A stretch of 64,000 nt of DNA from the NCBI GenBank assembly GCA_051294375.1, contig JBJCIZ010000358.1:1-64000 (forward strand), written 5' to 3'. The number at the start of each line of letters is the position of its first letter. Positions within the stretch are counted from its first letter, which is position 1. Positions 12,031 through 59,810 of the stretch are shown here, piece after piece. Below the pieces are notes generated by a model. The model was not told where the DNA came from, made no database searches, and saw only the letters and a list, made by a program, of their open reading frames with translations. The stretch comes from Paraspadella gotoi. Lineage: Eukaryota; Animalia; Chaetognatha. The translations under genes and the position numbers were made by a program.

Positions 12031-12479
12031 GCCGATTTGACTACCCTATCAAAAATGCTAAAAAATTGACTTTTTGATAAATATCTTTTAGAGCTTTATT
12101 ACTACAGGGACGAAACCCAATATATCTTGTAGTAGGGGTAGTCCCACTCAATGGAATGCACTTTTCTTAAAATCTTAAAAGCATAAGGATCGTCGCAATT
12201 GCATAGAGAGAGAGAGAGAGAGAAATCCTTTTCGGACAAATCACGAAGAGAGCGCGTTCAAACTATTTTGGGCAGTTAGGGATTTTTACATTTTTCCTCA
12301 AATTAATCTTTAGTTTCAAAAACTCGTGACGTCGAATCGTCTTACGGCGCCTCAAGAACGGTAGTGAAGGTTTCAGTAACTAGACAACTCAAATAAACAA
12401 ATATTGACGACGCCGTAAGCAGCGCTAGTACGACTGAGCAGTGCAATACAGCTATTCAGTAAACGTACGACTATTCTCC

Positions 12480-15400: not shown

Positions 15401-18400
15401 TTGTAGACCTAACTCGTTTTGAAAATTGAAAATGATTGCTGCTTCTGATTTCGATGAAAATAAAGGACGATTCTCTATTACAACCCGGTGTGGTGATTAA
15501 AAAGTAGGAAATAAAGAACAAAGAAGGTTGACCAACAGTAAGAAATTTCTACAAAGCCTAGGGGAAAAGTCATGGCATCGACCACACGACCCGTCGAAGG
15601 GACCCTTAGAAGAGAAAGTAAAAATCTCGCTCAAACGGCAACATGCTAAGAGAAAATCAACAGCATCACGGATGCCACAGTTATTCAAACCTCTCGATGC
15701 CAGCGAGATTGCCCTCGCCCAAACAAATATCTCCACAAATGGGGTGGAAGGACTGGAGCCTGTACAGACATGGGCAGGCCAAAGAGCCCATAATATCAAG
15801 GTCGAAAACCTGCGCCAAGCTTAATGAGAGGGCGAAGCGAAAAGGATAATGCTTCCTTCTTCTCTCCTACTCCTTCCTCCTCCTCCTTCTCCCGGCCAAG
15901 GAAAAATCAACCCAACGCAAACGCCGATAGCGACGCCAGCAACGCCCTCCCCAACGACTTACCCTCACCCACAACAAGGAGAAAAAAAAGGAACAGACTC
16001 AAATCCAACAATAACGTGGAGAAAGGCTGGGGCTAAGGAAACTCGGACCAACAGGCCAGGCAGGAAACAACCCAAACCTACCAGATTAGTCGCTTGGATG
16101 TCAAAAGTGGAGAATCTCTCCATCAAGCGGACCATTAGGAAAGTCGAACTCGAGTGCCATTTGCCGGGAAAGACTTCCCGTCCTCCAAAAGGGAAAGTGG
16201 AAAAATCAACAACAGACGAAAGAGACCATTGCCGGGGCTACCAGAAAAAAGATTGATAATTCCGATACAGGGACTGTAGGCAGAAACTAGAGAACACACG
16301 GATTATCAACCGCCTCACTGCAAAAATAGCTACATCCCAGCGGTGTATAAGCAGGAGCACCTGCCAGCTGCTTATACGATTACAGGTGCATCATTAACAC
16401 TGCTTACACGAATGTTCGTAGGAAAAAATGGGCCCTATCTAAACACCACTTATCCATGGAACACCACTCGCTTATCCACGCCACTGGCCACGACACGTTT
16501 AAGCTGAAGAGAATTAAACTCAGGGTGATGTTCCAAAAATGGGTCCTCCGCACGCATCTTTCTATGTCTCCCGACGAAAACGACAGAAGGACATAATCAT
16601 CGGAACGGCCATCACCATCCAGGCCTCCAGGACCAGCTAAATGGGTAGTACAACCCTCAATCAGAGGAGGAAACTGCAAATTGCCACCATGGACTGGCAA
16701 ACCCATTCACGGCACCTTGTTGGAGGACCAAACATGAGGCCCTCAAAGCGGGCCAGGATGGCTCGCTCGAGGAAACGTCGATTGAGCACACCATCTACCC
16801 ATAACTCAGAGAGAGCAAGATGGAAAAAACTGGCTTAACCTCAAGACCAAAGCTTACTGGAAAACCCTAACCGAACAAGATGGGATTGTCGAAGCGGAAG
16901 GACAGGAAAAGAGGGCCTACATCGCAGATTGGGCGACCAGTCCAAAAGAGGGAGTAAGAATGGACGCTGAAAAACCCGGGATTATTGGGAACAAGCCACG
17001 AACCCCTTAATAACAAACGAAAGCCAAGGTCGACCTGCATCTGAAATAATACGTCACGGCGAAGCCCGGTACAAAAGCCGGACCTATCAGGCTAAAAACC
17101 CCTAGTTAAGGAAAGTACGAAGGATCATATCCCGGCCACTACGATCGTCCATCATAAGGCCGAGCCGCAGAAGAATTAAAAGCGGTGGAGGAAGCACGCC
17201 CGAAAATAGAGGAAAGCAAAAAACCACCGACGGGAACGTGGCAAGGAAGCATTCCTGAAACCATTCAAGGACGTCGGCACCCAAAGCCTTAAGGGACAAA
17301 GCACAAACTGGTCTGGAGATTTTCTGGGAGTTTCGCAGCACGTCTTTGGAGAATCAATAAACGATTGCAAGGAGGGCTTCCTCAACTACAGGGTCGACCT
17401 CGGTTATACAACGAGGACCTCCCGAGCGAGATTCGCCAATAGGCCGGTTAAAGAAAGCGGCCCTCAAACGGTACCTGGAAGTTTACGAGAAAGCAGGGCA
17501 TTGGTATCTAGAACAAAGGAATGAAGCCTACTCGAAACGAGCCTTTCTCATAAAAAACCCGGACACGTGGCTGAGGGACAGACCAAAATGAACGACGAAA
17601 ACTTTGCGAAACCGTATGGTGGCCGCGAGGATGCGGAAGTGCAGTACCAATCGAGCGCCGGCGACGCCCGTGAGTGGCGATAATATGCGACCTCTCTTCC
17701 GTTAAATAATAACATCATCCACATATGCAACAGAACCACAAACGATAGCCCAATACTTGAACAATACAAACACGCACGAACTCGCAGTGCTCAGTTGGAT
17801 ATCCTTTGGGGGCCTTTGCTTCCAATCAGGTCAATCTAACGGACCGCTGCAGCCGGTTAACAAACCTCGCCGGAGCGGGTCATAACTGGTGGATGAATAA
17901 GCTGCCACAATGGTGGGGTCAACAGCGTCAAGCGTCTCCAAGCTATTACTGGATGAGATCTTCCAAGACTTAGGCACAGACGTTCAAAAGTTTCTCGTTC
18001 TACGTGGACGACCTCAATCTAACAGCAAGTCGAGAGGACCATGTCCCACAGACGCCGCGATTCTCGTTGCAAAGATGCAGAGACAAGAACGTGGTTCTCA
18101 CAGATGGACAAAAGAGCTTCCTCTGCGGAAAAGGAGGATATCAAGATCCTGGGCTCCAGTATCTCAAAGAGCAAGTTAATGCCACAAAAGAGAAAACCGA
18201 CGCGGTCGAGTCAAACTGAAATCCGCTGAAAACGCAGAAGGAGCTTCAGAGCGATTGCTGGCATCCATTGAATTACTACAGATGCTTCACCCACCGATCT
18301 CATAATCGCCCAACCTTCTCGCACGCCCTCACCCTGCTTGACAAAAAAAATTCAACGCTAACGGATAAACACACAAAAATTGCTGCTCAGTCCCTTTATA

Positions 18401-20306
18401 GAGGAAATAAGGTCATCGCCTGGCTTAAACTTCCTTAATGACGCAAGAATCAAGCAAGGCTCATACAAAATTATGCTGATGCCAGCACAAGACGGCGATG
18501 TGGATGGGGTTAAGTCACCGCGACTGCAGAGCTCGAATATCCACTGTCTTTTCACTCAAAAGTTCTTTCGCCTGACGAGTAACAGGATGAAGCATATCCA
18601 AGCATCCTGGAGACTCTTCGCATTCAACATGATGGTCCGTAAATTCAAGGGTTACACCTGTGGACGGAGCGTCACTCTAGTCACCGACTCACAGTATTTT
18701 TAAGAGGGTGATGGATCTCCAGCACGATAGCCAACAATTACTGCCCCACCAACGGCTCAGGTGGATTTACCGAAATACACAAGAAGGTCAACCTAAGGGA
18801 GCATCCTCGTCAAGAGCCGAGGATTTAATCCGGGCAGATTCTTGACCCCGTTCACGGACCAAGGGCAAGTTCACCGCCCCTGACACACCTTTCTTTCCGG
18901 CAGCTTCGATTATCTCGGGAAAAACGAACCTGCTTTGCCGAAAAATCCGTGTATGACCAACAAAAACCCAGAACATTTGGATCTCATCACGGACACGCCC
19001 CAACTCTGGCGCTATTAGCGCAAACGCTGACAGAAGACAACCAAGGCCTTCAGGAGCGAAATTCTTTGTAGTTCGTGCGACAACGATTTGTCCACACAGA
19101 AAGGCTAATATTCGAGAATATATGGGGAAAACCAAAACCAAAGATCCTGAACACATGGCATCAGGACCATACTCAGCCAAGAACTGATCGCTCGGGCATC
19201 CCGAACTGGAAATGCTCAACGAGATGACTGGATCACCTTGGTCATGATGGATGAGGACTCAACCAAAGAAACAGGTTGCAAAGTTCGAAAGAATTTACGG
19301 ATCTCCTACAGACAATCGGGTATTAAAAATCTTTAGAACAATCACGGGTGCAAGTCAGCGCTTATCAGAGATGAACGACAAGAAAGATCATTGGCGACCA
19401 ATGCATCACTGAAACCATCGCAAACCATCCAAAAGTCGACAAACTAAGCAGCCAGAACGCAGAGGACGGCCAAAGGCACAAAAAGATGATACTCGACACG
19501 TGACACCCTCCCACAGGGACTTCATAAACCTGCAGGTGGGCTCAGCCAATGAAGAGCCGCCGCCGGACATCAACCCGGCGGAACAGTCCCAGACAGTGAG
19601 GCACAGACACCAAATTGGCCTGGGCCCATCAGAGCTGATGGTCGATAGCGCCCTCGAAGCGGACGGCGATTGCCACAGAAAGGAAAATTGCAAATAAATC
19701 AGAGGGAAGCCCGAGGAAAAACAAACCGGACCTCATCCCGATCGCTCTGAGATAAAAGCAGAGTGGCATAGATGAGGAAGATCATTCAGAATTAGTCGTC
19801 AAAGCTCACAGAGAGCACCGCGAAAAAGCGACGGCAAAAAACTGAATATGAAAAGATTGCCAAAAAGAAAAAAACTTTAACCGGAGAATACTGTCTAAAC
19901 GCCTCGATGATTTTGACATCACCGATAAACGGACATGTCTAATCATAAAGGCTTCAAAGCGCGACATCCCCACGAAGCGAAACACGTCTACAAACAAAGG
20001 CAGAAGAAGTTAAAACAAAACGGATTCCATGAACGCGTTGGACACCCGGCCGAGACCGCAACAAGCATTTCATCACGCCCAGTATATCTCTGCCCCGGGA
20101 CTCACTGCATCCGCTGCTAAATGCCTTAAAATTGCGATAATGCGCAAAAAAGCGACAGATGCTCAGACGTCACAACGGAAACACCATCAAGCCCAAACCT
20201 CGCCATCCCCCTGGGAATCGCTTAGCATCGGAGTAATGCATCTTCCCCCAGTCGCTGTCACATTACCATCATGGAGCCTCGGATAAGCAATCGCATACAC
20301 TGGGCT
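12480..20306 (+). mobile_element. Ty3/Gypsy LTR retrotransposon (LTR-like 5' region, gag, PR-RT-RNaseH-IN), heavily frameshifted and truncated within integrase
   Basis: RT catalytic YVDD at 18001-18012; KILG at about 18140; NYYRCF at about 18270; RNase H KFKGYTCGRSVTLVTDSQ at about 18640-18700; integrase GHP...CxxC at about 20040-20125 followed by PSPWESLSI. Integrase after RNase H gives Gypsy domain order. Confidence 0.85.
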
Positions 20307-20470
20307 ATCTTCCTCTCTTTTCTCGGTTTTAGAAGATTAGCCCAGGTGTATGCGGATGCATTATCCAGGCACCAGAATGTAATTTGCCACGGACTGGGGA
20401 AGATGGCATTAACACCGATGCTAAGCATTCCCTGGCCAAGCCGAGGTTGGCCTTGATGTGTTCGTTGACC
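20165..20470. other. Probable untrimmed PacBio SMRTbell adapter with read turn-around (sequencing artefact)
   Basis: About 140-nt noisy inverted arms (cgcatacactgggcta / tagcccaggtgtatgcg) centred on atcttcctctcttttctcggttttagaagat (20307-20337), which resembles ATCTCTCTC-ttttcctcc...gttgtt-GAGAGAGAT. Confidence 0.7.
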
Positions 20471-20549
20471 GTTGAGGGTGGCCGCTGGGGGGTAGGGGAC
20501 CCGAGTGAGTTGATAGTATTTGAAGTCCGTTTACATAATGTACTTTCAA

Positions 20550-20920
20550 AGTCACGTTTATTCTGCGGTCAAGAGCCTGTTCTTACTCTTGTGTGTAAAG
20601 GATGGAGATGCTAGATCAACTTCCTGGTGATCTGACCCCCTGACTTAGCCACGTTGAATCACTTAGTCCTATGATAACCACTCTCGTCTTCGTTTGATTC
20701 ATGGATTGAGGTTTCGACCTTTGTTTGAACCCGACTGAGGTGCTATGCTGAAGAACTTTAACTTTTCTCCAAAATGCTTCAAAAACTTTTCTGGATATTC
20801 CAACTTTAAGTTTCTTCGTTGCCGTTTCTGTTGGTTCCCTGTGTACTTACATTGTGAGTCTACGCTTTTTTCAACCCTGCCTCCTCCGTTAATTTTACGT
20901 TTAAGGGAACCCTCCCCCTC
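20550..20920 (-). mobile_element. Inverted copy of the Gypsy LTR-like region (12480-12840)
   Basis: Reverse complement aligns to 12480-12840 (gaatcaaacgaa..cgagag, ctaagtcagggggtca, aattaacggaggaggcag) and contains AATAAA. Confidence 0.75.
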
Positions 20921-21299
20921 AACTGGCCAATAAAACCCCCCCCCCTCCCTTCAATCCTCTTTTTTATCTATTCTTGGAAAAGCCTGATCTTATTTACAAA
21001 TGCGTTCCCAAATGGACCGTCTGCTCCCACTATTTTGATAGAACCCAAATTCTAATCCAATCATGATTGAAAAGAGTGGATCAATCTGTTTAGAATTGCT
21101 GGTGTCTTGCAATAACCACTCCAACAACCGGAAAAACCATCTCAGTTTTAATAACCTTCTGCGTCTTAAAGGATCGGCCAGCCAGACATAATATACAAGC
21201 AAAAGTATAAAGGAAATATCCTGAGCCTAAAAATTAAGTTATGGCTGTTTGATTGATCCTCAGGTACAGTACACTTTGCAAAGAAGAAAAGATCATAAA

Positions 21300-23080
21300 A
21301 TGGGATGGTGAAGAATTATTCCCTATGCTCTAGCTTGTCCCGTGTCTGTCCATTACCTTGTTGAATAAACATGATGAAAATTTCAAATGAAGAACGAAAA
21401 AGCCGATATTTTTCTTACTTTCGGCTGCTTTGGAAAAGCCTTTACCGCAACGCGATTGATCTTGTTGGACTGAAGCGCGAACGAAGGCATGGCGAAACAA
21501 GTTGCCGCAATTTCCACATGACTCAAGTAGAAAGATTGATTTTGACAAAAAATGGCAAAAAGGATTCAAAATCGGTGGCTTTCATGGCGCTGCGATGGAG
21601 CGATGATTCGTATACGGATGCTTAGAGAATGCCGTTAGTGAGTTAACTGTTCAGTTTTGAAAATTTTACTCCGAATTTCAAGGCATGAACGTGATTGGTA
21701 TAGTTACTGTAATGACCAGCGTTATGATAGTCCTTACCGTTCTCATGATAGGCGCAGTTTCGGCGATAGAGGTAATTACCGAGACGATTCCAAGAAGAGA
21801 TGATCGCTACCGAATCATCCAGCACGGATGATGAGGAGAGTGATTTTAGTGGGGCAGTTAGAGGTCCTTCCTGCTAATCGCGAACAAGCGTATGATCGCA
21901 TAAAGGCTGCAATAGCTCGTCTTTCATCGGCGGAGATCTGACAATCCCCAAAACTAAATGGTCTTTGCCAGGGTGCATGCGAGGTCACAAGGGTAGCATT
22001 CCCCGAATTTAAAATTTAAAACCTAAGTCGAAAGGCGAGTTTTCATACGATAGTGGGTAATAAGAAGTTAGTGTTTTATAGTTGAAACTAAATTTTTTTG
22101 GCGATGCACTCCGTTCATTAAAATAAATTTAAGCCCCTCTCATTCATTGGTACAAGCAATTTAATGGAACTCAGGTGTAACTATAGGTATTTTAAATATT
22201 AAATTCGCATTATCAATTGTAAGGGTAGTCAACCTTTACTGGATTTCTCGTTTTCTTTGTAAATAATAAACCGTTTTTAACCCCAGTGAAAGGATAACTA
22301 AAGTTTTTAGGAGTTTCCTTTCTACATCCTTGATTGAATATTCCCATAAATTATTTGGTTACTTCTATTGTATCCCTTGAAGAATGATAGTGTCCCTTCC
22401 AAGTTCGAAGATCATTTGATGTTGAGCTATGCTGATGGAGATCAACTCGAAAAGCTCAACCTCTAATACAGTTATGAACAGATCCATTTCTCAGCGAAAT
22501 TATGAAACTCAAGTGAACAATAGGTCACAAGTCCAAGCTGTTATGTCTAGGCTACACTGAAACATTCACAATGAGTCATTGCGTTTTTGTCATTGGAGAT
22601 GGACAAGTTTCTGTTCACTTGTGAATACGATGCAGTATGAGACGGACCGTTCCGGCAGTTGGTCGTTCGATGTCGGGGATTATTGATTCTCAAAAGACCC
22701 CTGTAACCCTCTACATCTGAACGCTTTTCATAGTCCTGAAACCTGGATACAATCACAGGGGTCTGGAGCGTCCTCATTCCCAGTTGTGATAGCAGGTCCT
22801 CAGCATGTGCGGCGAGTTGGCTGTCGGACCCCTTTTTGGTGCGTCCAGCTCCATTGAAGTGGAATCTGAATCGGGATCTGAAGAGAATTATAAAATTCCT
22901 CTTCAGAAAAGATGTCCGTAATTCTCCAGTGATGTTACAGAGAGGTTACAGACCAGCTATGTATATTATTAGCTAAAAGCTAGTTGCCTTGATATAATAT
23001 GCCTGTTGTCTAGTTCTTACAGTAAATAACATTTTACACTGATACATCTTTTATTATTTATACTCTTTATCCATAATACA
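21300..23080 (+). mobile_element. Highly degenerate LTR-retrotransposon gag/protease remnant (tentative)
   Basis: Broken frames give an R/D-rich stretch (DQRYDSPYRSHDRR), a GLC..GCMRGH knuckle-like motif at about 21960-21990 needing a frameshift, and IINCKGSQPLL at about 22210-22240. No intact ORF. Confidence 0.35.
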
Positions 23081-27574: not shown

Positions 27575-28060
27575 AGTCGGATCTGCTTATCAGCAGATCC
27601 CGACTATATAATTCACTTTGTTGGTCCGTCTGTCCGACCCCTCAATCTTGTCGGTCATAGAATTAAATCATGTCAGAACATCGAATTATGAAAAATTAAT
27701 GCAAAATGTCTGTCTGTCCGTCCATCCACCTTAGCAAAAAACTCCAATTACTCTTGATTGGATGGATGGATTGTAATGAAATTTTTGTGTGTAGTTAGTA
27801 AAGTGTGTGATTGTGCTGGATATAAAGTTATGATGGAATGAGGAGTGGAAATTAGTTTGCATGAAAAAAACAAAGTCAAGCTGACTTGAAATTTTTATTA
27901 TTTAGGCTTCCTCATAAATTTTTGAATTAATTAAATGAAGTGAAAAAATGATGCAATTTGAAAAAATGATGCTAGTTAAAAAACTGATGCTCGTTGAAAA
28001 AACAATGAAGGTAAAATAATGATGCAAGTGGAAAAAATGATACAAGTTGAAAAAATAATA
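27575..28060 (+). mobile_element. HINE family A 5' part with satellite units
   Basis: T-run, then AGTCGGATCTGCT-tatc-AGCAGATCCCGACT hairpin, (GTCY)n microsatellite, and about six 18-bp units at 27940-28055. Confidence 0.8.
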
Positions 28061-37335: not shown

Positions 37336-37461
37336 TTTTCAATCTTGATCGGAGCTTCGATTCGAACGATGCGCATCTCTAACTTAGAGTAGCCAGTTTA
37401 AATTTTTATTTTTCCCGTAACTTCCGCTTATAATTATTTTTGTTTTCTATTCGGTCTGCAG

Positions 37462-37663
37462 TCCCAACATCGCTGTCATGATCCTGACGACGATGAGCAC
37501 CAACACTTCGCCTTTAAAGTCTTACGAATTTTCTGCCACCGCCGCCTCTGAGTCAACTCTCATCAAACTACAGGCTCCCACTGCCGATCATCTCCCGCCC
37601 TTTAATCCTATTCTCCCGCCATCGGCTATTTCTCAAATCTTGCTTTTGGCTAATCCCAACAAG
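37462..37663 (+). CDS. GGA: GGA penultimate coding exon (GAE domain core)
   Basis: Acceptor ctgcAG|tccc; (S)PNIAVMILTTMSTNTSPLKSYEFSATAASESTLIKLQAPTADHLPPFNPILPPSAISQILLLANPNK aligns to the GGA GAE motif KLQPPSGTELPAFNPI..PSAITQVLLLANP; donor AAG|GTAAGC. Confidence 0.93.
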
Positions 37664-37780
37664 GTAAGCAACCAGACCGTCACTTATCACAGTTATTTAT
37701 CACAGTTATTTATCACATATTCCGCCTCTGTCGGTCCTTCCCATATAGTTTAGTAAGTCACATCATTTTAGAACAACTTA

Positions 37781-37821
37781 ATTATCGTAGGCAAATCCGA
37801 CATTGTTTGCTCAAACTTGTT
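37781..37821 (+). mobile_element. HINE family A 3' terminus
   Basis: attatcgtaggcaaatccgacattgtttgctcaaacttgtt. Confidence 0.75.
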
Positions 37822-38529
37822 ACTCATAATTGCAGATAATTATTCTATTTATTCAGAGTTGCATAGATGAACTGAGAAAAAAATTTGTGTGTGGGGAAGA
37901 AAGCTTGTCATTAAGCTAGCTATAAAGTTTCGTTGGAATCGTGCAAATGAAAATGAGTTTTAATAGAAAAAACAATTCACATTTACATTTACTTAATTTT
38001 ATTATTAAAGTGTCGGTAACGTGACCTGTGACTTTTATTTTTATATTTCTTTCCCTCTCTCTTTTCCCTAGTCACTGATTCATAGTAGTGCCTGAATCTA
38101 GATTCAGATTTTCAAAAAACTTTCAAAATATAATCAGAACTATATTTAATGGAAATTAGTTATACAGCAGGTGGACCAAGTATGCTTAAAAGGTTAGTAA
38201 TAAAAATCGAGTGACTCGAATATGCAAATGAGATTAATGCGTCATCGTACGGTTGAATATAAGGCAAAAAAGGGCATAAACAATTTATTAATTATTATTT
38301 TTTAAAAAACAATGTTTTAATAGTTCTTTATGGGAATTCTGTATAATAAAAAATATTTTAAAAAGCTAATTTATCTAACAATATTAACATAATTATTGGA
38401 TGTAAATATATATGTTTTACTTCTTTTTTTTATTAATTTTTTTTATGAAATAGGTTTAACCACTATTTTTTTTTTTAATTTTGAAAAAATATTTAGCAAA
38501 AATATAACTTTTTTAAGAAAAAGGGCCAT

Positions 38530-39340
38530 TCAATTCAACTTCAAAATAGGCTGAAATGGAGTACATAATGCCAGAAAGCTGAGCTCCTGGCGATTCCGAA
38601 AATGTATTCACTTTATACATTTGATGCATTCTACCCATTTATATCGGTTTTAATTATATATATAAAATAAAAGAAACCTATCTGAAGAGTTGCAGTCAAA
38701 TGAAAAGGCCAATGCATCTGATATTTTTTATGAATTTTTATTACTGAATTAAGAAAAGTGTAATAGAGAGACATTTTTAAATTTCAACTGTATCCCTGAA
38801 AATGAAAGTTTTTAAACTTCAACCGAATTCTTTCTAACTGGAAGTGTTTATCAAAATGTCTCTCTATTACATTTTTACAAATGTTTTTAAGATTGCTAAT
38901 CAAATTTTTAATTCAATATTATTGCAGTCATTTAGGCTGCAACTCTTCAAATTCAGTGTAGATTCATTGTAGCTCGAATTTCTTTACCATCTATTTAACT
39001 GAAGATTTTGTTCATGACTGGAAAACCAACAGAGTAACGAGATAATTGTTTAATTCTCCCCTTCTAAACTACCCCATAGCCGTGTTTTTAACTTCTTAAC
39101 GCTAGGAACTTTTTAACAACCAGATTGAAAAAACAAATCTTTAAAAAATGTGCTTACCATTTAACTTAACAATTTTGTTATTTACCGCATTTAAAAAATT
39201 TATTGAAAACAGAATGTTTACATATAATAAGAACTTATTTTTTTGTGATAACTGATGACTATAATGTATTTCTCGATATATTAGCTCTAACAAATAAATG
39301 ATTACGTATTGTTATGCTGAATACCTTTCCTCTTAAGGTC
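38530..39340 (+). repeat. Interspersed repeat R2; inverted copy at 42810-42999 plus 45714-46345, split by the hAT insertion
   Basis: cagaaagctgagctcctggcgattccgaaaatgtattcac and following blocks match the reverse complement of 45714-46345, then of 42810-42999. Confidence 0.85.
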
Positions 39341-40546
39341 GGGATCACTCAATTCAAATTATAATTAGGCCTAAAACCAGCTCTCGGAAAATTTCGAAAA
39401 GGAAAGCTCTGAGATTCGAAAATGTATTCACATTTACTATTTTTTTAAAGACGTAGTCGTTTTTTTTGATTTTTTTTGTAGCTATATAAAAAAAAAGAAA
39501 CCCATTTGAAAAGAAGAAATTGCAGCCCAAACGTGTAACGGCGGTTTTCCATGAAATTTAGCATAATTACCTTTGTGGTCACGGACTCCAATTCTAATGA
39601 AAAGATACTTTCAAAATTTGCATTCCTTCATAAGAAATTTGATTTTTTTTAATCATTTTTTGGATTTTAATTCCTTGAAATATTGAAACGAAAAACGTTT
39701 TTCCAAAAACGCGCTCATAAAACTCCCCACCTTTTCCTTTCTTGCCCAAGATATTTTTTCTTCAAGAAGAGTCCAAAACGGTTTGAAGCTGCAACTCTTC
39801 GTTTTTAACTTCTCTTCGTCAAGAAAGTTAAATTCTTTACTCATTACTCTTGCAAGATTCACCAAAAACATACACAAGCACGGGATGTGATGATGGAATT
39901 TGTTCAACTCCGAAGTCTTAAAAAAATGGCTTACTGTTTTAATAATTTGGATTTGATTTTTTTTTTCAAGATTCCCGAGAAAATAGGGCAAACTCTTTAT
40001 GATAAAACATTTACATAAAACTAAAAGTCAAATTGAAAAAAATTCGATAATTTTTTAACTCATAAAACTCATAAAAGCTAAAAACCCTTCTGGAAAATGT
40101 GTAGAGTAGTTTATTTTAAGACTTATTAGTGATACAGCTCCAAGTACGTACTTGCAACAAAAAGAAAAAATATAGAGAAGTAGAAATTGAGCTTACTGTA
40201 AAAAACGAGTTTAAAGCTAAAAATTTGGTAGAAAATTTAGCTTACATTTAAAAAATTATTTTCTCTTGAAAATCTAGTTTACCTAAGAAAAAATTTTGTT
40301 TTAAATTTTATGAACATTTTTGGTAAGAATTTTTAAAAGTTTTTGATTATTTTTAAATAGAAATCCTTCTTACGGGATGCGAGAAAATGATTAAGATACA
40401 TAAATTGAGTTCTTCAATTTTAAGTTTGAGTGACCCTGGCCTTTAATTGGTTCAGGCAAGTAGAATACAACAATACTTTATGAGTCAGATTCTGAAAATG
40501 AATTGGAAAAGATGATTTTTGATACTTCTTTTTCTGACTAATTTTT

Positions 40547-41150
40547 AGTCGGATCTGCTTATCAGCAGATCCCGACTCTATAATTCACCTTGTCCGACCG
40601 TTGGTCTGCCCCCTCAATATTGTCGGGCACTAACTTATATCATGTCAGAACATAGAATTATGATAAATTATGCAAAAAAATGATGTCGTCCGTCCCACCT
40701 TAGCAAAAAACACAATTACTCGTGATTGAATGATGGATTTGAATGAAATTTTGTGTGTGGGTTGGAAAGTGTGTGATTGAGCTGGATATAAAGTTTCGAT
40801 GGATTCGTCCGAGTGGAAATGAGTTTTAAATGGAAAAAACTAAAAAATATAATTCACTATTTGAACACCAATTGCTCATGAGTGGATGGGGCGATTGACT
40901 GGAATTTTGTATTGAGTAGGGAAATGTGTGATTAAACAGGAAACCAAGTTTTGATGGAATCGTTTGAGTGGTAAATGAAGTTTATATGGAATAAATAACT
41001 CGTGATTGGCTGATTGGATCGGAATGAAATTTTGTGTATGGGTAGAACATGTGTGATGAAGCTGGATAGAAATTTTTGACGGAATCATGTGAGGATATGA
41101 GTTTAAATGGAAAAAACATAAGTCGCATTTACTAAAATTTTTTTACTTAT
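40547..41150 (+). mobile_element. HINE family A 5' part with ~140-bp internal repeats
   Basis: ttttAGTCGGATCTGCTtatcAGCAGATCCCGACT, gtccgtcc, and repeated gaaattttgt..gctggata..ggaatcgt..tgagttt units. Confidence 0.8.
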
Positions 41151-41335
41151 TTTAACCAATAAATACTCTAATTAATCATAATTGGATGGCTAGATTGAGT
41201 TCAATAAAATTAATTTTTTTTACAAATAATGTTCACTGATGGTATGTTGTTCGTAATTGACTTTTAGAATTTTCGTATGTAACTTTACTACGCGCCTTAG
41301 TAATCATTGTGTTAGTGACAGAACCGTTCAATATA

Positions 41336-41409
41336 AGCAGTCCCTGAGCTTCGGATCAGGCTGTAACACCGTGTTACAGGCGGGTTAAGTGCCCCGTCCC
41401 TCTACTGCT
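41336..41409 (-). ncRNA. Twister ribozyme, circularly permuted type P5
   Basis: - strand: P5 AGCAGU, A, P2' GAGG, GA, T1' CGG, short P1 GGCACU, UAA, P2 CCC, T2 GC, P3 CUGUAACA-cgg-UGUUACAG, P4 CCUG, loop AU-CCG-AA-GC-U, P4' CAGG, G, P5' ACUGCU. Conserved elements are in order and T1 (CCG/CGG) covaries. P2 is one nt short. Confidence 0.8.
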
Positions 41410-41410
41410 A

Positions 41411-41470
41411 GGCGAACCCCGGACCTTTGGGTTGGGAGGCGAATGACTTGCCTCCCGCACCAATGGCCGC
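41411..41470 (-). mobile_element. tRNA-derived SINE-like head (Pol III A/B-box-like) directly upstream of the twister
   Basis: - strand GCGGCCATTGGTGCGGGAGGCAAGTCATTCGCCTCCCAACCCAAAGGTCCGGGGTTCGCC: A-box-like TGGTGCGGGAGG, anticodon-loop-like CTCCCAA (Gly-CCC-like), B-box-like GGTTCG. Confidence 0.65.
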
Positions 41471-42999
41471 TGATGAACGGTTGGTAGATTTTAATCCACC
41501 ATACATCCGCCCTCCCGTAGGGAGAAATCTGTTGCGTCTCTTCAATGAATTGTTGTTGTTGGTGGAAAGTGCATCGCCAGCTTGAGGCATGTCGCCTGAA
41601 AGTGTTGTTGTTGTTGTTGATGTAATAAATAATAATAAGAGTGAGGAGAAGGTGAAGAATTGTGACGATGTAAGAGAAGTAGAAAAGAAGTGAGACGAGC
41701 TTTCTCCTGATCCACTTTTATCATCGCCCGGACCAACTTGACCTTATGGTCGCCTCGGCCCTATTACTGTGTTCGGTCAATTTAAGGTCATTGCCAATGC
41801 TAGGGCAAAGTGACCGTGTGGATTGACCGGCTCGGAGAAAGAGGAGAGAGGAAGGGTTTAGAGAGAGAGACCGGTGGTAAGTCGCCTCAATGTTATCATT
41901 TTGCTATCGCAACATCGAGTTTTTATTTTGTTCTTTCTTCTCGTCACTCTTTATTTTTCATTATTTCCTTTCTATTCTTTCTTTCCTTTCTATTCTTTCT
42001 TTATTATTTATTCTTTTTGTTTTTTTTTTCTGTTTATAAATTAATTTTCTTTTCTCAAATTTTATATTTTTTAGTATCAAAATTTGTCGTCAATCCAGAT
42101 TTTTCTTATGCGATTGCGTCGATTTTTATGATTTTAAGATTTTTTAGTTTACATTTAAAATAGTCTTTTTAGAGGGAGACACTATCATCGAAATAATTTT
42201 TTTTCTCGGAAAAAGTGTAGTCCATCGTACAAAAATATATATGCTTTTAATTAATTAGGGACTATCATCGGAAACCTCTCAAGCAATATCTGTTGTCAAA
42301 AATCATTTCTTTAGGTGATATAAGGCTTTTCTCTATTTCAGACTCACTTTGTCGAGCTATATTCCAGGAACTTTATGATGAATTTACTTTTTATTTTAAA
42401 TATTGTTAAACAACTGGATACCAAGCATGGATTAAATACAAATTTGTTCTAAAAAGGTTTTACTGTATCTGATTTTTTGAAAACTAGCTTAAAATATATA
42501 GGGAATCATGGGGAATCACTACCATTCTAATTAAATATAATGATTGATATTATAACGCACTTGATGTGTTCGGGATTTCATCCGCAACGATCCACAAAAT
42601 AAGTAAATGCTAAAATGATTTTCAAATTAATTTTTTTTCTAACACCCCGATAAGAACCATTTACTAAGTAAATTATTTTTTTAACTGCGATTTTGAAGTG
42701 GTTTAACTTATTGAATAATTTTTTTCTTTTTAAAATTTCATTTTACCGTATTTGAGAGGTAAAAATAATTAAATAAAGCCAAAAAACTCCGCTTAGCGTT
42801 TGATTCATCTTAAGAGGAAAGGTCATTCAGCATAACAATACGTAATCATTGATGTGTTAGAGCTAATATATCGAGAAATACATTATAGTCATCAGTAATC
42901 ACAAAAAAATAAGTTCTTATTTATTTGTGTTCATTCTGTTTTCAATAATTTTTTTAAAATGGGTAAATAACAAAATTGTTAAATTAAATGGGTAAGCAC

Positions 43000-43382
43000 T
43001 AGGGCGGATCATATGCATATATAATTTTCCAAAATATGTTGCCTGTCGGTGATTCCTTTACCTAATATAGTTTTATTTGATATCACAATAATAATTTCCA
43101 AAAAAATATTCAGGATCCACTGCAGATTTTACAATTTTTTAAGAAATCATCATTTGCGAACTGTGATTGGTGGAAATTGGTCACGTGACCATCGAATTTT
43201 ATTTTTGGTATTATATTTACTAAATAAAAAGTTGTTTTTCAGTTAAGCAATGGAAATTTTATATATTTAAAGCAATACATTAAGATTTATGAACAATATC
43301 AAGGAAAATAAACAAGAAAAAGAAATAAATAAAGCCCCAGACTGGACATACAATCGACTTATCTCTCTTTCTTATTTTCTCA

Positions 43383-43427
<45 letters not shown>

Positions 43428-44101
43428 GAAGAATTTTATTTTCTCGCACGCGGAAACTAAAGTTCAAGCGTCCCCCGTCCAAAAATGAGTCGACAAGAGT
43501 TTCAAAATGTATGTTTATTGAGAGAAAATAGAAAAAAAACATGGTTTAGAAACTCATAGAAACAAGTTTCAGACAGTGATAGAAGGAGAAGACAAGGCGA
43601 GATATTCTTCACTTTTTCTCATTCTAAAATCGTAAATTTTAGACAAAAAAAATGAAATGAAATTACATTACGGATTTTTCATTTAATATTTTAAGAATCC
43701 AGATTTTTTCCCTTTTTTCGTTAGAGAAGACGCGAAGGGCGATGAAACATCGTCGATCGATGGAGATTGTTCTAGTTGACGAATTTGATTATAAAGAGGA
43801 GAAATCGCTAGAGCTACGGAGAAAACAATGAGCGGCGCTATTGCATCACGCATAAAATGGGGTATATTTTTTTGAAATCTAGTAAACAAAAATATTTTGG
43901 AATCTTCTTTACCAATTTTTTTAAATTTCAGATTTTTTTTTTAATTTTTTTTCCTTAATTTTTTTTTCAAACAATTTTTATTGCATAAAAAGGTTTTTAT
44001 TAAATAATTCATACAAAATATCGAGATTGGTTTATTTTATTAAACATTGCATTCGAAATTCAAATGGTAAGATGGTAAGAAAGAGTAAATAAGAATAAGG
44101 A

Positions 44102-44137
<36 letters not shown>

Positions 44138-45713
44138 AAAGAATAGAGACTCTCAAAAACTTCTTCAAAGCAAAACATCTTGTTAAGGTATAGTTGCCAC
44201 TGTAAAACCATTGTCAGCAGAATATTGGAGTCCGGTATCAATAGAATCTAAAATTTATTATAAAAAGACAGATGTTATCGAAAAAGAAAATAAAAACAAC
44301 TAAATACGTTCTCAAAGATTTTCAAGAAGACTTCTCATTTGTGCGAGCCATACCGTGAGACGTATCCATGAATTTCAGTAACCAGTTGGAAGGTCTTTTC
44401 ATCCTCTTGAATTCGCCGTATGCGAACGAAAAATTTGTTCAGGGAAAATTAATAAAACGAAGAAAAGATAACTGAAATCGCAAATTCCAATGCGGTAAAC
44501 TATTCCTTTTCGGTTTTACCCCAAATCAGGATTCATTTTATTACAGGTCGATTTACGAAATTTTTTTAAGAAAGAGGAAAAAAATTATTTGTTTTGAACA
44601 GCGAAGCCACGAGACGGGTTGCGTAGTTTTTACGGGGCATATCTTTGTACAATACCATAGTAAAAACTATAACTATTGTGGACGACACCACACCGATGAA
44701 GTGGCCAGATATTATATATTCTCTCCCTCTTTGCCAACAATATATCGTTCAAATTTTAAGGTCACACGGTAATTTTTTTATTATAAAAAGCGAGAGACTT
44801 TTGTATTTAACACTCTTGAATGTCGCCTAAAATCATGTCTCTAATAAAACATTTTCCGTTTCTTCACTATTTTCTTTTATTATTTTCTTAGTTTTATATT
44901 TGAATCTTCCCAGATCTGTGCTAAAATTTTAATAACAATAATTTTTTCCTGAATGACGTGAAGGATAATTCTTTAAATCCTTTAATAATTTTCGATAATA
45001 ATCATATCCATGGTATATCCTTTCGTTACGTTGTTGTATAGAGATTTACAAAGAATTTTTGAATTGTTACAACCGATTTTATTATTAGAAATGCAGACAT
45101 GTTTCGACTCTGAGATTTTGAATCTTCCTCAGCGCTTATTGACAGTATAATTGGAATAATGGAATAATTTGTGAGTTAAAGAAAGAGAGAGAGAGAGAGA
45201 CAGAAAAGGTTAAAGTTTCCAACAAAGAATTGAGACAGATTAGTGGTCAGTGTAGAGGACAGATTTAGTTTAGGCAGATTGAATAAGTGGTGAAAGAAGT
45301 GAAATTTGGTGAAAGGTGAGAGAGAGAGAGAGAGAGAGAAAGAAATAAACAATTAAATTTGAACAATCTAGCCTAAACTAAATCTGTCCTCGACACTGAC
45401 CACTAATCTGTCTCAAATCTTTTCCAAAAAATATAAATTTTAAGAGTTACTAACTGTATGTACTAATAAATATTACTGTTGAGATAAGACAATGCAGATT
45501 TTAATTTATTTGCCAATATTTCAATTTATATTGAGAAATCATTTGTCCTTTAATCTCATTTGCATATTATAGTGCGGTTAAACTTTAAAACGTAAATATT
45601 CAATAATGCGCTTTACATTTAAAAAAAAAATAACTTCATATACATATTTAGGTACATGGAAGGTACAGGAATCACAGACAGGCAAGGCCTAACTCGGAAA
45701 TCGATCCGGCCTA
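43000..45713. mobile_element. Non-autonomous hAT-superfamily DNA transposon (2714 bp)
   Basis: TIRs TAGGGCGGATC / GATCCGGCCTA with one mismatch, inverted subterminal motif ttgcctgtc.gtgattcct.tacct at both ends, and perfect 8-bp TSD GTAAGCAC (42992-42999 and 45714-45721). The R2 copy near 39150 has a single site. Confidence 0.88.
45090..45137 (-). ncRNA. Minimal type I hammerhead ribozyme in a Penelope-like fragment (45040-45420)
   Basis: - strand gcg-CTGAGGA-agattc-aaaatctca-gagtc-GAAAC-ATGTC-tgc. A ~50-bp inverted repeat lies nearby (45231-45280 vs 45366-45416). Confidence 0.7.
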
Positions 45714-46992
45714 GTAAGCACATTTTTTAAAGATTTGTTTTTCAATCTGGTGTTTAAAAATTCTAGGTAAGAAGTTAAAACACGGTATGGGATAGTTTAG
45801 AAGGGAGAAAATTAAACAATTAATCTCGTTACTAGTTGGTTTTCCAGTCAGAACAAATCTTCAGTTAAATAGATGGTAAAGAAATTCGAGCTACAATGAA
45901 TCTACACTGAATTTGAAGAGTTGCAGCCTAAACGACTGCAATAATATTGATTAAAAATTTGATTAGAAATCTTAAAAACATTTTTAAAAATGTAATAGAG
46001 AGACATTTTGATAAACACGTTCCAGTTAGAAAGAATTCAGGGTTAAAGTTTAAAAACGTTTTTACTTTTCAAGATACAAGTTGAAATTTAAAAATGTTCT
46101 CTATTACATTTTCTACAATTCATAATAAAGAATTCATAAAAAATATCAGATGGATTGGCCTTTTCGTTTGACCTGCAACTCTTTCAGATAGGTTCTTTTT
46201 ATTATATTATAATTAAAACGATATAAAATGGAGTAGATGCATCAAATGCTTAAAGTGAATACATTTTCGGAATCGCCAGGAGCTCAGCTTTCTGAATTTG
46301 TACTCCATTTTAGCCTATTTTGAAGTTGAATTGGAATGACCCTTTTTCTTGGAAAACTTAAAAAATAAAATAAAACATTTTTGTACTTTTTGGAAATATT
46401 AAAGAATTACTCGTGTTAAGCTATCCGAATATGTCATTAGTAAAATTTTTCCGATTTTAACGTTCACTTCGATCATAGTGGGAGAGGGCCTTTTGCCAAA
46501 ATAGCCTGTCCATAATCAGGAGCAAGATGCTTAATTATACGAATGGATTCTTTTTAATAATGGCTTTACAAATTTTATAAGAGAAGTTATTATTAATCTT
46601 GAACAAATTCTTTAACTTGTGCTAAATATTCAAATATATAATTATATTGAAGTAAAATTTTTTCTAATAAATAGCTTTAAAAGAACCCTAACCTTGTGTT
46701 AAATAATAACGAGAGAATATCAATTATTTATAATATGTAGCTCTTAACTTAATTTGCGATTCATGAAAATGACGATTGAGGATTAAGGAAAATGGTACAG
46801 AAGCCACCACGAAAGTGATACTGATATTAAACATGTAAAACATAGGTTTAGGGTTATTTTTTATCATTAAAATAAATATTATGCTTAATAAAAATGATAA
46901 ATATTATATGACTTAAATTTTTGCTTTAACAATTTATTGTTTAATATTAAAGATTTAAGTAATTTTAAACAAAGTTTTTTGGGTGGGTTTTT

Positions 46993-49252
46993 AGTCGGAT
47001 CTGCTTATCAGCAGATCCCGACTCTATAATTCACTTTGTCGGTCAGTCGGTCCGCCCCATCAATATTGTCGGGCACTAACTTATATCATGTCAGAACATC
47101 GAATTATGATAAATTATGCAAAAAAAATGATGTCCATCCGTCCGTCTGTCTGACTGTCCGTCCATCTGTCAATCCCACCTTAGCAATAAACACCGATTAC
47201 TCGTGATTGGATGGATGGATTTGAATAAAATTTTGTGGGTGGGTAGGGAAGTGATATCGATAGATGTGGAATGATGGGAATATTGTAAATCTCAAGTTTT
47301 GCTTTAATCGGACCTCACATTGTGGAGAAATCTTAGGAAACCATCAAAATTCCTCCCTTTTTTCAACATTCTCACCTTTTAAGATTTTCGCCGATTCTGA
47401 CTTCCTCTTACAAACTTATAATTCCGCTAGTTAATTTTTTTTTCTTAAACGAGCGAAGGGAATCCACAACTTTCTGTTATTTTATGATTTCTGGGTAAAA
47501 AATATAATAAATTATATTAACGTTGGGATATTATGAAAGTGTAATATCTTATGAAGCCTGTGAGACTTAAATAATTTAAAAAATTCGCTTATTTTATTAT
47601 TGAAAATAACATCAAAGTGAAGAAGTTGAATGGCTTCCGGCTCCTTTCAGTAAACATCCCTGTTCTCTTCAATAAGATAAGTAAGTGACAAAAAAATTCA
47701 CATTTTCTTTATCCAAAAAACTTTATAGTTTTACTAGAGTACAATTTAGCCTTTTTTCTTTCAGAATCATTAAAAGAATTAAATTTTCATTTATTCTTAT
47801 GGGGGTGTCATTAGTTTTAAAATTCATTTTAATTTTGACTTAGTTTGAACTCATCCTGTAAGGAGGTTTCAGCATAAGTAATTCTAAAATTGTATCTTGT
47901 ATGTGCCCTATGATTATGGCTTCATTTTGGTACTATTGCCATCCCTTAAGCTTTATTCCTTCAAGATATTAGGAAAAATTAGTTTTTTCCTCAACCTTCC
48001 TTTTAATTTCTTTTTAAATAAAAATTTCGCGATTCAAACGCGACTATTTCATTTAAACCTGATCATTTTTGTGCAAAATCAGTATAAAATGAAAAAAGAA
48101 AAATAGGACAAGCCTCTTCAGACACAAAGCTATCAGAATCGCAAAATTCGAAGTCGCTCATGTAACAGGAACATATAGCAATCCGGTTTGCAATTTAAGT
48201 TTGTAAACTTCCATTTCATTTCTATAGTAAAAATGAGGTTTGAAAATTCTCCGGAGATGAGTAGTGCATTTCCCTGGCTTGTTTGATATTAAATCCTTTA
48301 TCAAATGCCATAAAACGAATAGGACAAGCTCTTTAGATATAACGCTTTCGAATCGTGCGTTTTTACAAGTTTTTTTAACCAAATTTCTGGCAAACGCGTT
48401 TGCAATTTGGGTAGTCAGATTTGAACGGAATTCTCTATTAGAAAAATGTTGAATTTTTTTTTAAGCGAGATTCTCGTCTAAATAACTAACTTTTATGAAG
48501 CTTGTGAAAAACCTTATTAAATATTTTTTTAAATTAATCAGGGTTGACATTAAAAAACCACCTAAAAAAAAACAAAATAAAAAAACCACTAAAAGTATTT
48601 TTTTTATATGCAAGTTGAAAAAATGATGCAAGGTGAAAAAATCTTCAAAGCATAAGGATCGTTGCAATTGCAGAGAGAGAGAGATAAAAACGAAATAAAA
48701 ACATGATGTTGCGATAGCAAAATGATAACATGCACAAATGCTATGCTTAATTTTACGAGTTCAATCCTAATTCAATTTTTTTTTAAATAAAAACGCAGAG
48801 AGAGAGAGAACGTCAGCAGCAGAGGTAGCCAGAAAAAAATAAAGAAATCAAAAGTCAGCAGTAGAAGCAGCTGGAGAAAAGAGAGAAAAAGAAAGCCCCT
48901 GCAGAGCCAGCTGCAGACTCGTTTTTTTTCCGATGAATCAGCACTAAAAATGATCATAAAAATAGCGCAAGTTGAAAAAATGATGGGAATTGTAAAAATG
49001 ATGCAAATTGAAAAAAATGATGTGAATAAAAATCGTTTGGTAATTAAAATATTTACTAAGATTGTGATCTAAGTTTTTTAAAAAGGTATATAAAACACTA
49101 AGTGTTCAACTAATTAAAAATCGAATCGTTTTTTGAGGATTTAAAAAAAATTGTAATTTATCATCTGATTAGCTGATTACCTACTATTTTCTTTTTTTTT
49201 CAACCGCTTAATTATTGTAGGCAGATCCGACATTGTTTGCTCAAACTTGTTT
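46993..49252 (+). mobile_element. HINE family A composite copy interrupted by an R1 block (47253-48605)
   Basis: 5' hairpin/subTIR at 46993, GTCY repeats, satellite units at 48605-48640 and 48965-49022, and 3' GCAGATCCGACATTGTTTGCTCAAACTTGTT at 49220-49252. Confidence 0.7.
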
Positions 49253-49483
49253 AATGCCAACTCTGCTGAGGAAACGAGCCTAACGCTACCTTAATATCCC
49301 TTAGGCCTGATACGCCTGCCGACGGTTTCAATTTAATAAAGTTAAATAAAAAAAAAATATTTTTAAGATTTAAATTCGAGGTTATTTGCTTAAATATCTG
49401 TTCTAGAAAATATAGAAGAATCAGTAGACAATGTTAGAGATGAAAACTTTGTATTAATCCTTTCTTTTGTTGTTTGTTGAGAT

Positions 49484-50030
49484 TAATTAAAAACGAAAAT
49501 TTTCGTGGAACAACAATAAAGTTTTTTATTAACTTTGGACATGTTTCGGCTTACAACTCAAGCCTTCATCAGCATTTGAAATCACAAATAATTTATTTCA
49601 CAAACATTGAGAGAGGGGGAGAGTTCCAACAAAGAATTTTCTAAAGGAAAGTGGTCAGATGTGAGGACAGGTGAAGATGAGGACAGGGATGAAAAGGAGA
49701 GTGAATGTGAAATTGGTGAAAAGGGAGAGAGAGAGGGAGAGAGACACACAGAGAGAGAGAAATAATAGTATACATTAGGCAATGTACAACAAAGATAAAT
49801 AGTATTATAAACTAGACATAACAAAGATTGAAATAAATTAAATTAGGCTGTTTGTGCATTTTTGAAATATTGAAAATGAAATGGAAAAGGATAGTTTGTG
49901 AGGGATAGTTAAGATAAAGAGGTAAGAGAAAAATAAGTAAAAGAAAGAGCTCAAAATGAGTTGTAAGCCGAAACATGTCCAAAGTTAATAAAAAACTTTG
50001 TTGTTCCACGAAAATTTTCGTTTTTAATTA
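49484..50030 (-). mobile_element. Penelope-like non-autonomous insertion with inverted partial pLTR
   Basis: 49484-49560 is an almost perfect inverted repeat of 49957-50030 and overlaps the hammerhead. Inverted truncated pLTRs are typical of Penelope insertions. Confidence 0.75.
49534..49578 (-). ncRNA. Minimal type I hammerhead ribozyme (Penelope type)
   Basis: - strand tg-CTGATGA-a-ggctt-gagttgt-aagcc-GAAAC-ATGTC-ca; stem I is short. Confidence 0.75.
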
Positions 50031-50080
50031 AGAGATAAAAACTATTATTGCTCAACTTTTTCATTTTTTCTGTTGTTCAG

Positions 50081-50182
50081 GAATCCGTTAAACTCGAGTT
50101 CGAAGTTCGGTTCTCATTGGGCGACGCATCGTACTTGGATTCCGGCGAGACTCTCCCTTTGCCATCGCAAATTTTCTTTTGA
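50081..50182 (+). CDS. GGA: GGA last coding exon (GAE C-terminus), not in the ORF track
   Basis: Polypyrimidine tract and ttcAG|GAA; ESVKLEFEVRFSLGDASYLDSGETLPLPSQIFF* aligns to GGA EKVRLRYKLTFTMGDQTYNEMG; phase 0 matches the donor at 37663. Confidence 0.88.
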   Translation, partial: ESVKLEFEVRFSLGDASYLDSGETLPLPSQIFF

Positions 50183-57013: not shown

Positions 57014-57597
57014 TGCCAAGTTGAAAAAAATGTATATTCATGCAAGTTGAAAAAAATGATTGCAATGTTTGAAAAAAAATGATGCAAAGTTGAAAAAATG
57101 ATGCATGAGAAAGTGCATCAAGGTTGAAAAAATATGCAAGTTGAAAAAAATTGATGCAAGTGAAAAAAATGATTGCAAGTTGAAAAAATGATTGCAGTTG
57201 AAAAAATATAAGTTTGAAAATATTGCAAGTTGAAAAAATTGATGCAAGTTGGAAAAAATGATGCCAAGTTGAAAAAAATGATTCAAGTTGAAAAAAGTAG
57301 CACAGTTGAAAAAATGATGCCAAGGTTGGAAAAAAGATGCAGTTGAAAAATGCTGAAGAAAAAATGATGCAAGTTGAAAAAATGATTGCAAGTTTGAAAA
57401 AATTGATGCAAAGCTTGAAAAAAATGATGCAAGTTGAAAAAATGATGCAAGCTTGAAAAAATGCATGCAAGTTGAAAAAAATGATGCAAGTTGAAAAAAA
57501 ATGATGCAAGTGAAAAAATGATGCAAGTTGAAAAAAAATGAATGCAAGTTTGAAAAATGATGCAAGTTTGAAAAAAATCTGTGCAAGTTTGAAAAAA
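57014..57597 (+). repeat. Tandem satellite, about 31 x ~18 bp (GTTGAAAAAATGATGCAA), within a HINE ending at 57922
   Basis: Units visible directly; followed by the (GA)n module and the family 3' motif. Confidence 0.92.
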
Positions 57598-59394: not shown

Positions 59395-59810
59395 AAAATG
59401 TGCGATGCGAGTTGAAAAAATGATGCGAGCTTGAAAAAATGATGCGAGTTGAAAAATGTAGATGGATTTGAAAACATGGTGCGAGTTGAAAAAATGATGC
59501 GAGTTGAAAAAATGATGCGAGTTGAAAAAATTGATGCGATCGGTTGAAAAAATGATGCGAGTTGAAAAATTGATGCGAGTTGAAAAATGATGCGGAGTTG
59601 AAAAAAATGATGCGAGTTGAAAAAATGATGCGAGTTGAAAAATTGAATGCGAGTTGAAAAATGATGCGATTTGAAAAAATGATGCGAGTTGAAAAAAATG
59701 ATGCGGAGTTGAAAAAAATTTTTTAAAAATATTGTGATTTATCATCTGTTTAGCAGAATTACCGCTTAATTATTGTAGGCAGATCCGACATTGTTTGCTC
59801 AAACTTGTTT
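59395..59810 (+). repeat. Tandem satellite, about 18 x ~18 bp (GTTGAAAAAATGATGCGA variant), followed by a HINE 3' terminus
   Basis: Array at 59395-59718, then gtaggcagatccgacattgtttgctcaaacttgtt at 59775-59810. Confidence 0.9.

Follow-up and report, generated by a model that had tools for sequence, protein, structure and literature searches.

A high-copy animal repeat family that pairs a tRNA-like head with a P5-order twister fold

On the minus strand of a 64,000-nt stretch of repeat-rich animal DNA (the window; ~30% GC), a tRNA-like head and a P5-order twister fold are joined in a dispersed repeat, one copy of which lies in the last intron of a GGA adaptor gene. The fold, at 41336-41409, is real, and we read the repeat, with a probability of about one half, as an analogue of Sm-alpha and of the animal non-LTR retrozymes that would be cut by its own ribozyme, driven by Pol III and moved by a Penelope-like element (PLE), its partner being of the Naiad type. 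Both parts, the tRNA head and the twister, are already known, as is the proposed life cycle; no element combining a tRNA head with a twister was found in the literature searched, whereas Repbase, Dfam or paper supplements, which lie outside that search, may include one. The more specific version of this reading, in which a Pol III circular-RNA retroelement would have combined a tRNA promoter with a twister from a Naiad-type Penelope element and so reinvented the Sm-alpha/retrozyme cycle independently, is tentative, and we place it well short of even odds.

The twister fold and its recognition

The minus-strand letters of 41336-41470 were checked, and the twister core and all the stems named for it in the initial annotation (UAA, GA, T1, T2, P2, P3, P4 and P5) were each found in their places (Table 1). 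The core set of a type P5 twister is complete at this site, comprising UAA, GA, both pseudoknots, P4 with its loop and the P5 strand order, and P3, P4 and P5 are predicted with high probability when the whole copy is folded. Strand order, UAA, GA, T1, T2 and the P4 loop are like those of the Rfam twister models P5 (RF02684) and P1 (RF03160), the order being that of P5, and the base of P3 resembles the P1 consensus of the Rfam model.

Table 1. Positions of the element and its parts in the window
Feature	Position	Strand	Detail or basis
Last intron of the GGA adaptor gene, with the element antisense in it	37664..50077	+	tblastn exons; Pfam GAT
Whole copy of the repeat	41299..41621	-	contig depth rises at ~41301-41313, falls at 41613-41625
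Upstream part of the long form	41546..41621	-	two CAA tracts flanking a 46-nt unit, tandem in some copies
Hairpin just inside the frequent family 5' end (41503, give or take TA)	41483..41503	-	predicted fold
5' arm of the 8-bp stem enclosing head and ribozyme	41474..41481	-	pairs with 41323-41330; pair probabilities 0.73-0.90
tRNA-like head	41411..41470	-	anticodon-loop-like CT-CCC-AA, Gly; loose ends, alignment to phage tRNA, stems by eye
P5-order twister fold	41336..41409	-	P3, P4, P5, T1, T2; 3-nt P2 strand, almost no P1
P5	41409-41404 with 41341-41336	-	AGCAGT with ACTGCT
P2, 3' strand	41402-41399	-	GAGG
GA	41398-41397	-	
T1 pseudoknot	41396-41394 with 41354-41352	-	CGG with CCG
UAA	41387-41385	-	
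Predicted cleavage site, between U and A	41386..41387	-	place in UAA by the twister rule given in PMC8501958
P2, 5' strand	41384-41382	-	CCC
T2 pseudoknot	41381-41380 with 41349-41348	-	GC with GC
P3	41379-41361	-	8 bp
P4	within 41336..41409	-	5 bp
3' tail	41299..41335	-	loose ends before 41308 in 70, 105 and 14 contigs

The remaining two stems are weak. A usual twister P2 has four, sometimes three, canonical pairs; here and in the family CCC faces (G)AGG, which can be read as a bulged helix of three pairs or as two stacked pairs next to a C-A mismatch. P1 amounts to one pair in the 6-nt loop region by script, against a threshold of at least 2 bp, and to 1-2 pairs at most. The perfect CCUC that had been suggested as the family consensus of P2 did not materialise: the family has CCC, and no such insertion is listed at 2% or above, the 12 indel rows listed at that threshold including none at 41382-41386 and reaching a depth of 219, against ~2.9 million at that place.

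A combined pattern and pairing search of the 64-kb window, with a pattern that was composed with the site already in view and that permits a 3-nt P2, returned this one site. The same pattern gave 15 loose matches on both strands of 300 locally (doublet) shuffled windows, two of them with a P4 of at least 5 bp and none with P3, P4 and P5 all of at least 5 bp; 20,000 shuffles of the 200-nt element yielded no match, and a looser version yielded three in 200 shuffles. As a positive control, the pattern recovered the Rfam-positive phage P5 twisters L020, L082 and L098. It also matched L059 and L088, which in truth carry P1 twisters: each of these phage contigs holds two P1-type ribozymes back-to-back (L059:129-228 and L088:110-209).

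The search with the Rfam twister-P5 model that the initial annotation had proposed left the site unmatched. Neither a twister nor a tRNA was matched at gathering score in the window, the RF02684 threshold not being reached, or in a scan of 161 bases with E up to 10. The miss is probably due to the architecture of that model, which has an 8-bp P1 and neither a P3 nor a P5 stem, P1 of the element being nearly absent and its P2 short. The CCG/CGG form of T1 is a natural variant: of 12 phage loci selected among those carrying it, nine are matched by twister models of Rfam, and 39 of 241 phage loci with these letters have a fully paired P2 together with a P4 of at least 3 bp, many of them being near-duplicates; a 3-nt P2 strand likewise occurs in the Rfam-positive L082, where the 3-bp P2 is perfect. 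A covariance model built from 13 phage twister halves gave the site its best score within the 64-kb window (19.7 bits, rough E 0.004), to which we attach little weight: its alignment picked the UAA within P3, and 12 of the 13 loci used for training had been chosen by the loop letters of the window. Family-specific patterns had no match in prokaryote genomes and viral contigs, and the sole metagenome match (L001) was dismissed as a chance 21-mer in a GC-rich, bacterial-looking coding stretch.

Extent of the repeat family and its tRNA-like head

The family was read from public sequencing runs, all in contig form (X1, X3, X6 and X10; X6 is guessed to be RNA and was taken as uninformative on expression). 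In run X3, 11,981 contigs fall on 41288-41650; over the wider 41100-41950, which includes other repeats, the counts are 9,652, 15,376, 1,027 and 5 for X1, X3, X6 and X10, and runs X11 and X12 gave none, which is no proof of absence. So many distinct contigs point to a very high-copy family, contig depth itself being no copy number, and the window holds no second copy. Head and ribozyme are both spanned by 13 of 30 listed pieces, from a list that favours long ones, with 5-17 gap letters each and in three runs from two studies. The linkage is therefore not confined to the window copy, and the two parts travel together family-wide, as had been suspected, rather than being independent insertions that adjoin here.

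The family extends well beyond the 135-nt unit (41336-41470) that had been delimited at first, reaching ~150 nt further upstream and ~50 nt further downstream, and loose ends occur at 41308, 41403, 41414 and 41619. Upstream, 41503 is where 89, 111 and 21 contigs pass from the family into long, mutually unlike, AT-rich sequence whose consensus starts with ATAT and has an agreement of 0.43-0.46, in a window that is itself AT-rich. This end lies 33 nt upstream of the tRNA start, and no 5' loose end is listed at 41470. The short form of the repeat measures ~234 nt; other copies, that of the window included, continue to 41619 through the CAA tracts and a variable number of 46-nt units, the joint from 41599 back to 41554 ('goes back 46') appearing in 7, 8, 2 and 1 contigs of X1, X3, X6 and X10. 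Downstream, the family runs ~23 nt past 41308 and ends in CTCTTCA, beyond which comes an AT-rich flank or, where copies stand in tandem, another unit. The 3' loose-end consensus is mixed AT-rich, with no poly(A) or simple-repeat tail.

A head-to-tail joint from 41618 to 41311 is present in one contig in each of X1, X3 and X6 among the four runs compared, a count that speaks to existence and not to frequency; the loose ends at 41619 (two contigs of X6 and one of X10) overlap the 3'-end consensus by seven letters. From these ends we infer a head-to-tail unit of ~373 nt. The window copy is damaged: it is 5'-truncated in a CAA tract, lacks the last ~11 nt of the family 3' end and has lost 13, 2 and about 4 nt in deletions of its own. 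Avoidance of TTTT on the ribozyme strand did not reach significance, as TTTT was likewise missing from 1,742 of 5,000 shuffles. Within 41342-41573, eight of 15 well-covered minor variants listed are CpG transitions, although CpG accounts for 32 of 312 positions (majority-state differences, three rows at 41456 and low-depth rows are excluded), an excess that suggests host methylation of the repeat.

These ends bear on what kind of element this is. Copies of a tRNA-derived SINE start at the tRNA and carry a poly(A) or simple-repeat tail, neither of which is seen among the ends listed here: many copies start at 41503 and the ends are AT-rich. An ordinary SINE copies only sequence downstream of its promoter, and a start 33 nt upstream of the tRNA is thus beyond the reach of a simple Pol III SINE. 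The same positions make it very improbable that the repeat is a stand-alone unit of ~135 nt releasing a tRNA-like 5' fragment with a cyclic phosphate: that idea draws on the ribozyme starting 2 nt past the acceptor stem in the majority form, but the ends of the family, 41503 on one side and past 41308 on the other, do not coincide with 41470 and 41336, and the predicted cut lies ~26 nt beyond the tRNA end. Read on the plus strand, the repeat could alternatively be a non-autonomous rolling-circle DNA transposon of the Helentron/HINE type with the tRNA and the twister as captured passengers; an inverted repeat with a hairpin immediately after it at one fixed end, the internal microsatellite and 46-nt repeats, the AT-rich flanks and the tandem junction all suit that proposal. 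We consider it improbable, because HINE inverted repeats are described as 12-15 bp long and 2-4 nt from the 5' end (PMC4067079), against 8-9 bp and ~38 nt in here, because the long form extends past the hairpin end, and because the repeat is more simply an RNA stem around two RNA motifs of the same polarity. A MITE, suggested by an 11-bp terminal inverted repeat, was also considered and lost ground because the family and the window copy differ at 41545. A second ribozyme that would account for the 41503 end was sought by eye and with hammerhead core motifs, and none was found.

The head had been described as ~60 nt long; it is indeed tRNA-like, and that length belongs to the deleted window copy, most copies having a head of full tRNA length. 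The majority carries 13 nt that the window copy lacks between 41414 and 41413, and two extra bases at 41403; the loose ends of three runs agree on this, their consensus drawing on 106, 190 and 26 contigs ahead of 41414 and on 55, 113 and 16 behind 41403. GGTTCG, first taken for a feature of the head, is the junction of this private 13-nt deletion. By eye, the 13 bases supply the 3' strand of the T stem and the start of TGGTCGC, all seven letters of which pair with the first seven of the head. The majority head thus completed is 72 nt long, not counting a discriminator; its acceptor stem (7/7) and T stem (5/5) are fully paired, the D stem is weak and the anticodon stem, which carries the CT-CCC-AA loop, has 3/5 pairs. 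P5 of the ribozyme begins 2 nt past the acceptor stem. The B box of the majority head, GTTCTAGCC, is near consensus and differs at position 57, whereas the window copy has lost the B box; the A box is without the usual A14. A head with A and B boxes, as in a tRNA-derived SINE, is thus present in the majority form, and ARAGORN reported no tRNA in the window.

It is conceivable that the twister cuts while the tRNA-like part serves as an RNA processing or priming structure instead of a promoter, transcription coming by read-through from other promoters, as has been proposed for retrozymes (PMC7761336). The acceptor and T stems, perfect in the majority, and the broken (3/5) anticodon stem and imperfect A box, judged by eye, are compatible with this; the B box, however, survives in the DNA even though the T-loop register has slipped, and Sm-alpha, a hammerhead element with a tRNA head, is reported to be transcribed by Pol III, so that we give this version little chance.

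Cleavage and the proposed cycle

The catalytic letters and both pseudoknots are retained in the majority of copies, and the weak P1 and P2 are common to the whole family. Ribozyme variants listed among the copies affect the loop of P3 (41370-41372), the region of P1 (41390), the junction between P4 and P5 (41342) and T1 (41352); the last is the commonest stem variant (13% of depth), a CpG transition that breaks a T1 pair. Among the variant rows listed for the copies, with the low-depth rows at 41402-41416 set aside, there are no compensatory changes. In a mutational scan of a rice twister, mismatches in P1, P2 and P4 were often tolerated, T1 and T2 were sensitive and P1 was dispensable (PMC5113685); elsewhere P1 is described as dispensable but helpful, cleavage without it being inefficient (PMC8501958). 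As T1 and T2 are kept and P1 and P2 weakened, activity is plausible, perhaps low. A competing hairpin of CGGG with CCCG, formed by the 3' strand of T1 and the 5' strand of P2, would sequester T1 and P2; its predicted stability exceeds that of the nested twister fold by 7.8 kcal/mol in a count that leaves pseudoknots out. With P1 nearly gone and P2 weak, the predicted ribozyme may no longer cut well.

Contigs run through 41387/41386, and no loose end is listed at the cut site. This passage, the weakness of P1 and P2 fixed in the family and the competing hairpin are what one would expect of a tRNA-headed, SINE-like passenger that has captured the 3' end of its partner and keeps the twister as a recognition signal cutting weakly or not at all; moreover, an active ribozyme behind a SINE head would cut the head away and truncate the element, as argued by Kojima (PMC5786205). 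Against such a passenger stand the catalytic letters and pseudoknots kept in most copies, and an uncut RNA begun at the head leaves the 33 nt upstream of it and the head-to-tail joint unexplained unless a further joining step is added. We regard it as unlikely, if a serious contender.

In the preferred reading, a cleaving, Pol III-driven and PLE-moved element, transcription from the first head of a tandem pair would read into the next unit, and cleavage at two sites would free a ~373-nt unit with its 5' end at the cut and the promoter close to its 3' end, as in Sm-alpha. A host ligase could close this unit into a circle, re-forming the cut site. From the fixed CTCTTCA end, which lies about 75-80 nt beyond the cut, the partner enzyme would copy back through ribozyme and head, often halting at the 41503 hairpin to give the ~234-nt short copies and sometimes going round to give long and tandem ones. 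Such a cycle would explain why copies cross the cut site and contain 33-150 nt from upstream of the head, where the promoter would lie. In the more specific version of the reading given at the outset, the weakness of P1 and P2 would serve, together with the competing hairpin, as a brake that leaves part of the RNA uncut for copying. The ~84-nt 5' product first predicted fits the deleted window copy, the majority form giving ~99 nt instead; moreover, with many copies starting at 41503 and some reaching the head-to-tail junction, the unit between two predicted cuts would be a more meaningful product than a tRNA-like fragment. Counting against this reading are the competing hairpin, the weak P1 and P2, the missing Rfam match, the T1-breaking variant and the lack of compensatory changes among the variants listed, the imperfect A box, a tandem joint seen in one contig per run and a motif search in published Naiad consensi that gave no matching fold.

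The closest parallel in design is offered by Sm-alpha and Sj-alpha of Schistosoma (PMC6765202, PMC2770079), which share the tRNA-derived head, a downstream self-cleaving ribozyme (here predicted) and high copy number. According to PMC6765202, Pol III transcribes Sm-alpha from tandem copies; ribozyme cleavage then liberates a unit whose promoter has come to lie at the 3' end, while a solitary copy goes no further. The same layout and release are proposed here. Sm-alpha has a type I hammerhead whose cleavage has been shown, whereas the present element has a P5-order twister whose cleavage is predicted. Animal non-LTR retrozymes (PMC7229834, PMC7761336) share the non-coding unit with one ribozyme, 150-450 bp long in retrozymes and probably ~373 nt here, apparently also the occurrence as monomers and tandems, and the mobilisation by PLEs that is proposed for them as it is here; they are reported to be circularised by tRNA ligase (PMC7229834) and have been argued to be non-autonomous PLEs in a preprint (10.64898/2026.07.22.740005) whose main text contains neither the word 'twister' nor 'tRNA'. 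These retrozymes are defined by a type I hammerhead, which the window element is without: no hammerhead was matched in Rfam, and the minus strand of the window copy contains neither CTGANGA nor GAAA. The element is accordingly not classed as a retrozyme or a member of Sm-alpha, though it is proposed to work alike.

A Naiad-type partner is suggested by the habits of these Penelope-like elements, which are described as favouring (TA)n targets and forming partial tandems (PMC8557442), and with which the family seems to share AT-rich or (TA)n targets and partial tandems, as well as 5' truncation. No autonomous partner was identified, and motifs searched in published Naiad consensi, which come from other species, gave no matching fold. 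Among six record ends examined in the supplement of that paper, two clam Naiad consensus ends show by eye, unscored, a twister-like P5-order fold with P3 and P5; these are the records preceding Naiad_Mmer and Naiad_Obim, assigned to clams by table order. They have T2 as CC/GG and otherwise different sequence, whereas the window element has GC/GC, a tRNA head and no ORF. The records preceding Naiad_Hpol and Naiad_Asuum, from two nematodes, have consensus ends with the core halves of a hammerhead in rearranged order, again by eye.

Animal twister roles are known mainly from 5' processing of RTE-type LINEs. The T-variant twisters of Perere-3 and RTE LINEs (PMC8501958) resemble the present one in belonging to animal non-LTR elements and in their weak P1; they are described as P1-order and lying at the 5' end, before the EN-RT ORF, with copies that begin at the cut, whereas here the twister is internal, copies cross the cut and no ORF follows. 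The fold escapes Rfam and published retrozyme screens seek only hammerheads, and such families would therefore be missed. In phage theta ribozymes, an HDV-like fold right behind the 3' end of a tRNA cuts at the tRNA end; here the predicted cut lies ~26 nt beyond that end, and the tRNA, which looks non-functional, forms the head of a repeat. If the preferred reading is true, the retrozyme cycle would not depend on the hammerhead, and the element would offer a small RNA amenable to asking how Penelope-like enzymes choose and copy passenger RNAs. Under the more specific version of that reading, the engineered system of Pol III transcription and twister circularisation would have a natural counterpart.

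The host gene and neighbouring repeats

The element lies antisense to the GGA pre-mRNA, as first annotated. The exons of this gene were located by tblastn at 5653-6057, 7066-7785, 37430-37663 and 50078-50176; the best named GGA matches have 52-55% identity over the GAT domain, and the closest relatives found are two unnamed proteins, 54-69% identical where they match the GAT exon. The gene (5653-50176) has repeat-filled introns of about 30 kb and 12 kb, and within the former, a 10-kb block at 12000-22000 is richer in GC (0.45-0.51) and contains many interrupted reading frames. Seven frames from this block had no Pfam match, and it is probably a decayed mobile element.

The truncated 3' end of the repeat adjoins a different high-copy repeat at 41216-41295, a like end of which is joined elsewhere, in one X3 contig, to the twister element at 41333. 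On the other side, just upstream on the minus strand and beyond a low-depth gap (41622-41650), another hairpin-rich repeat family occupies 41650-41895. The window also contains a dispersed family of 18-20-bp minisatellites, with arrays at 57040-57597, 59404-59717, 27941-28056 and 48972-49027.
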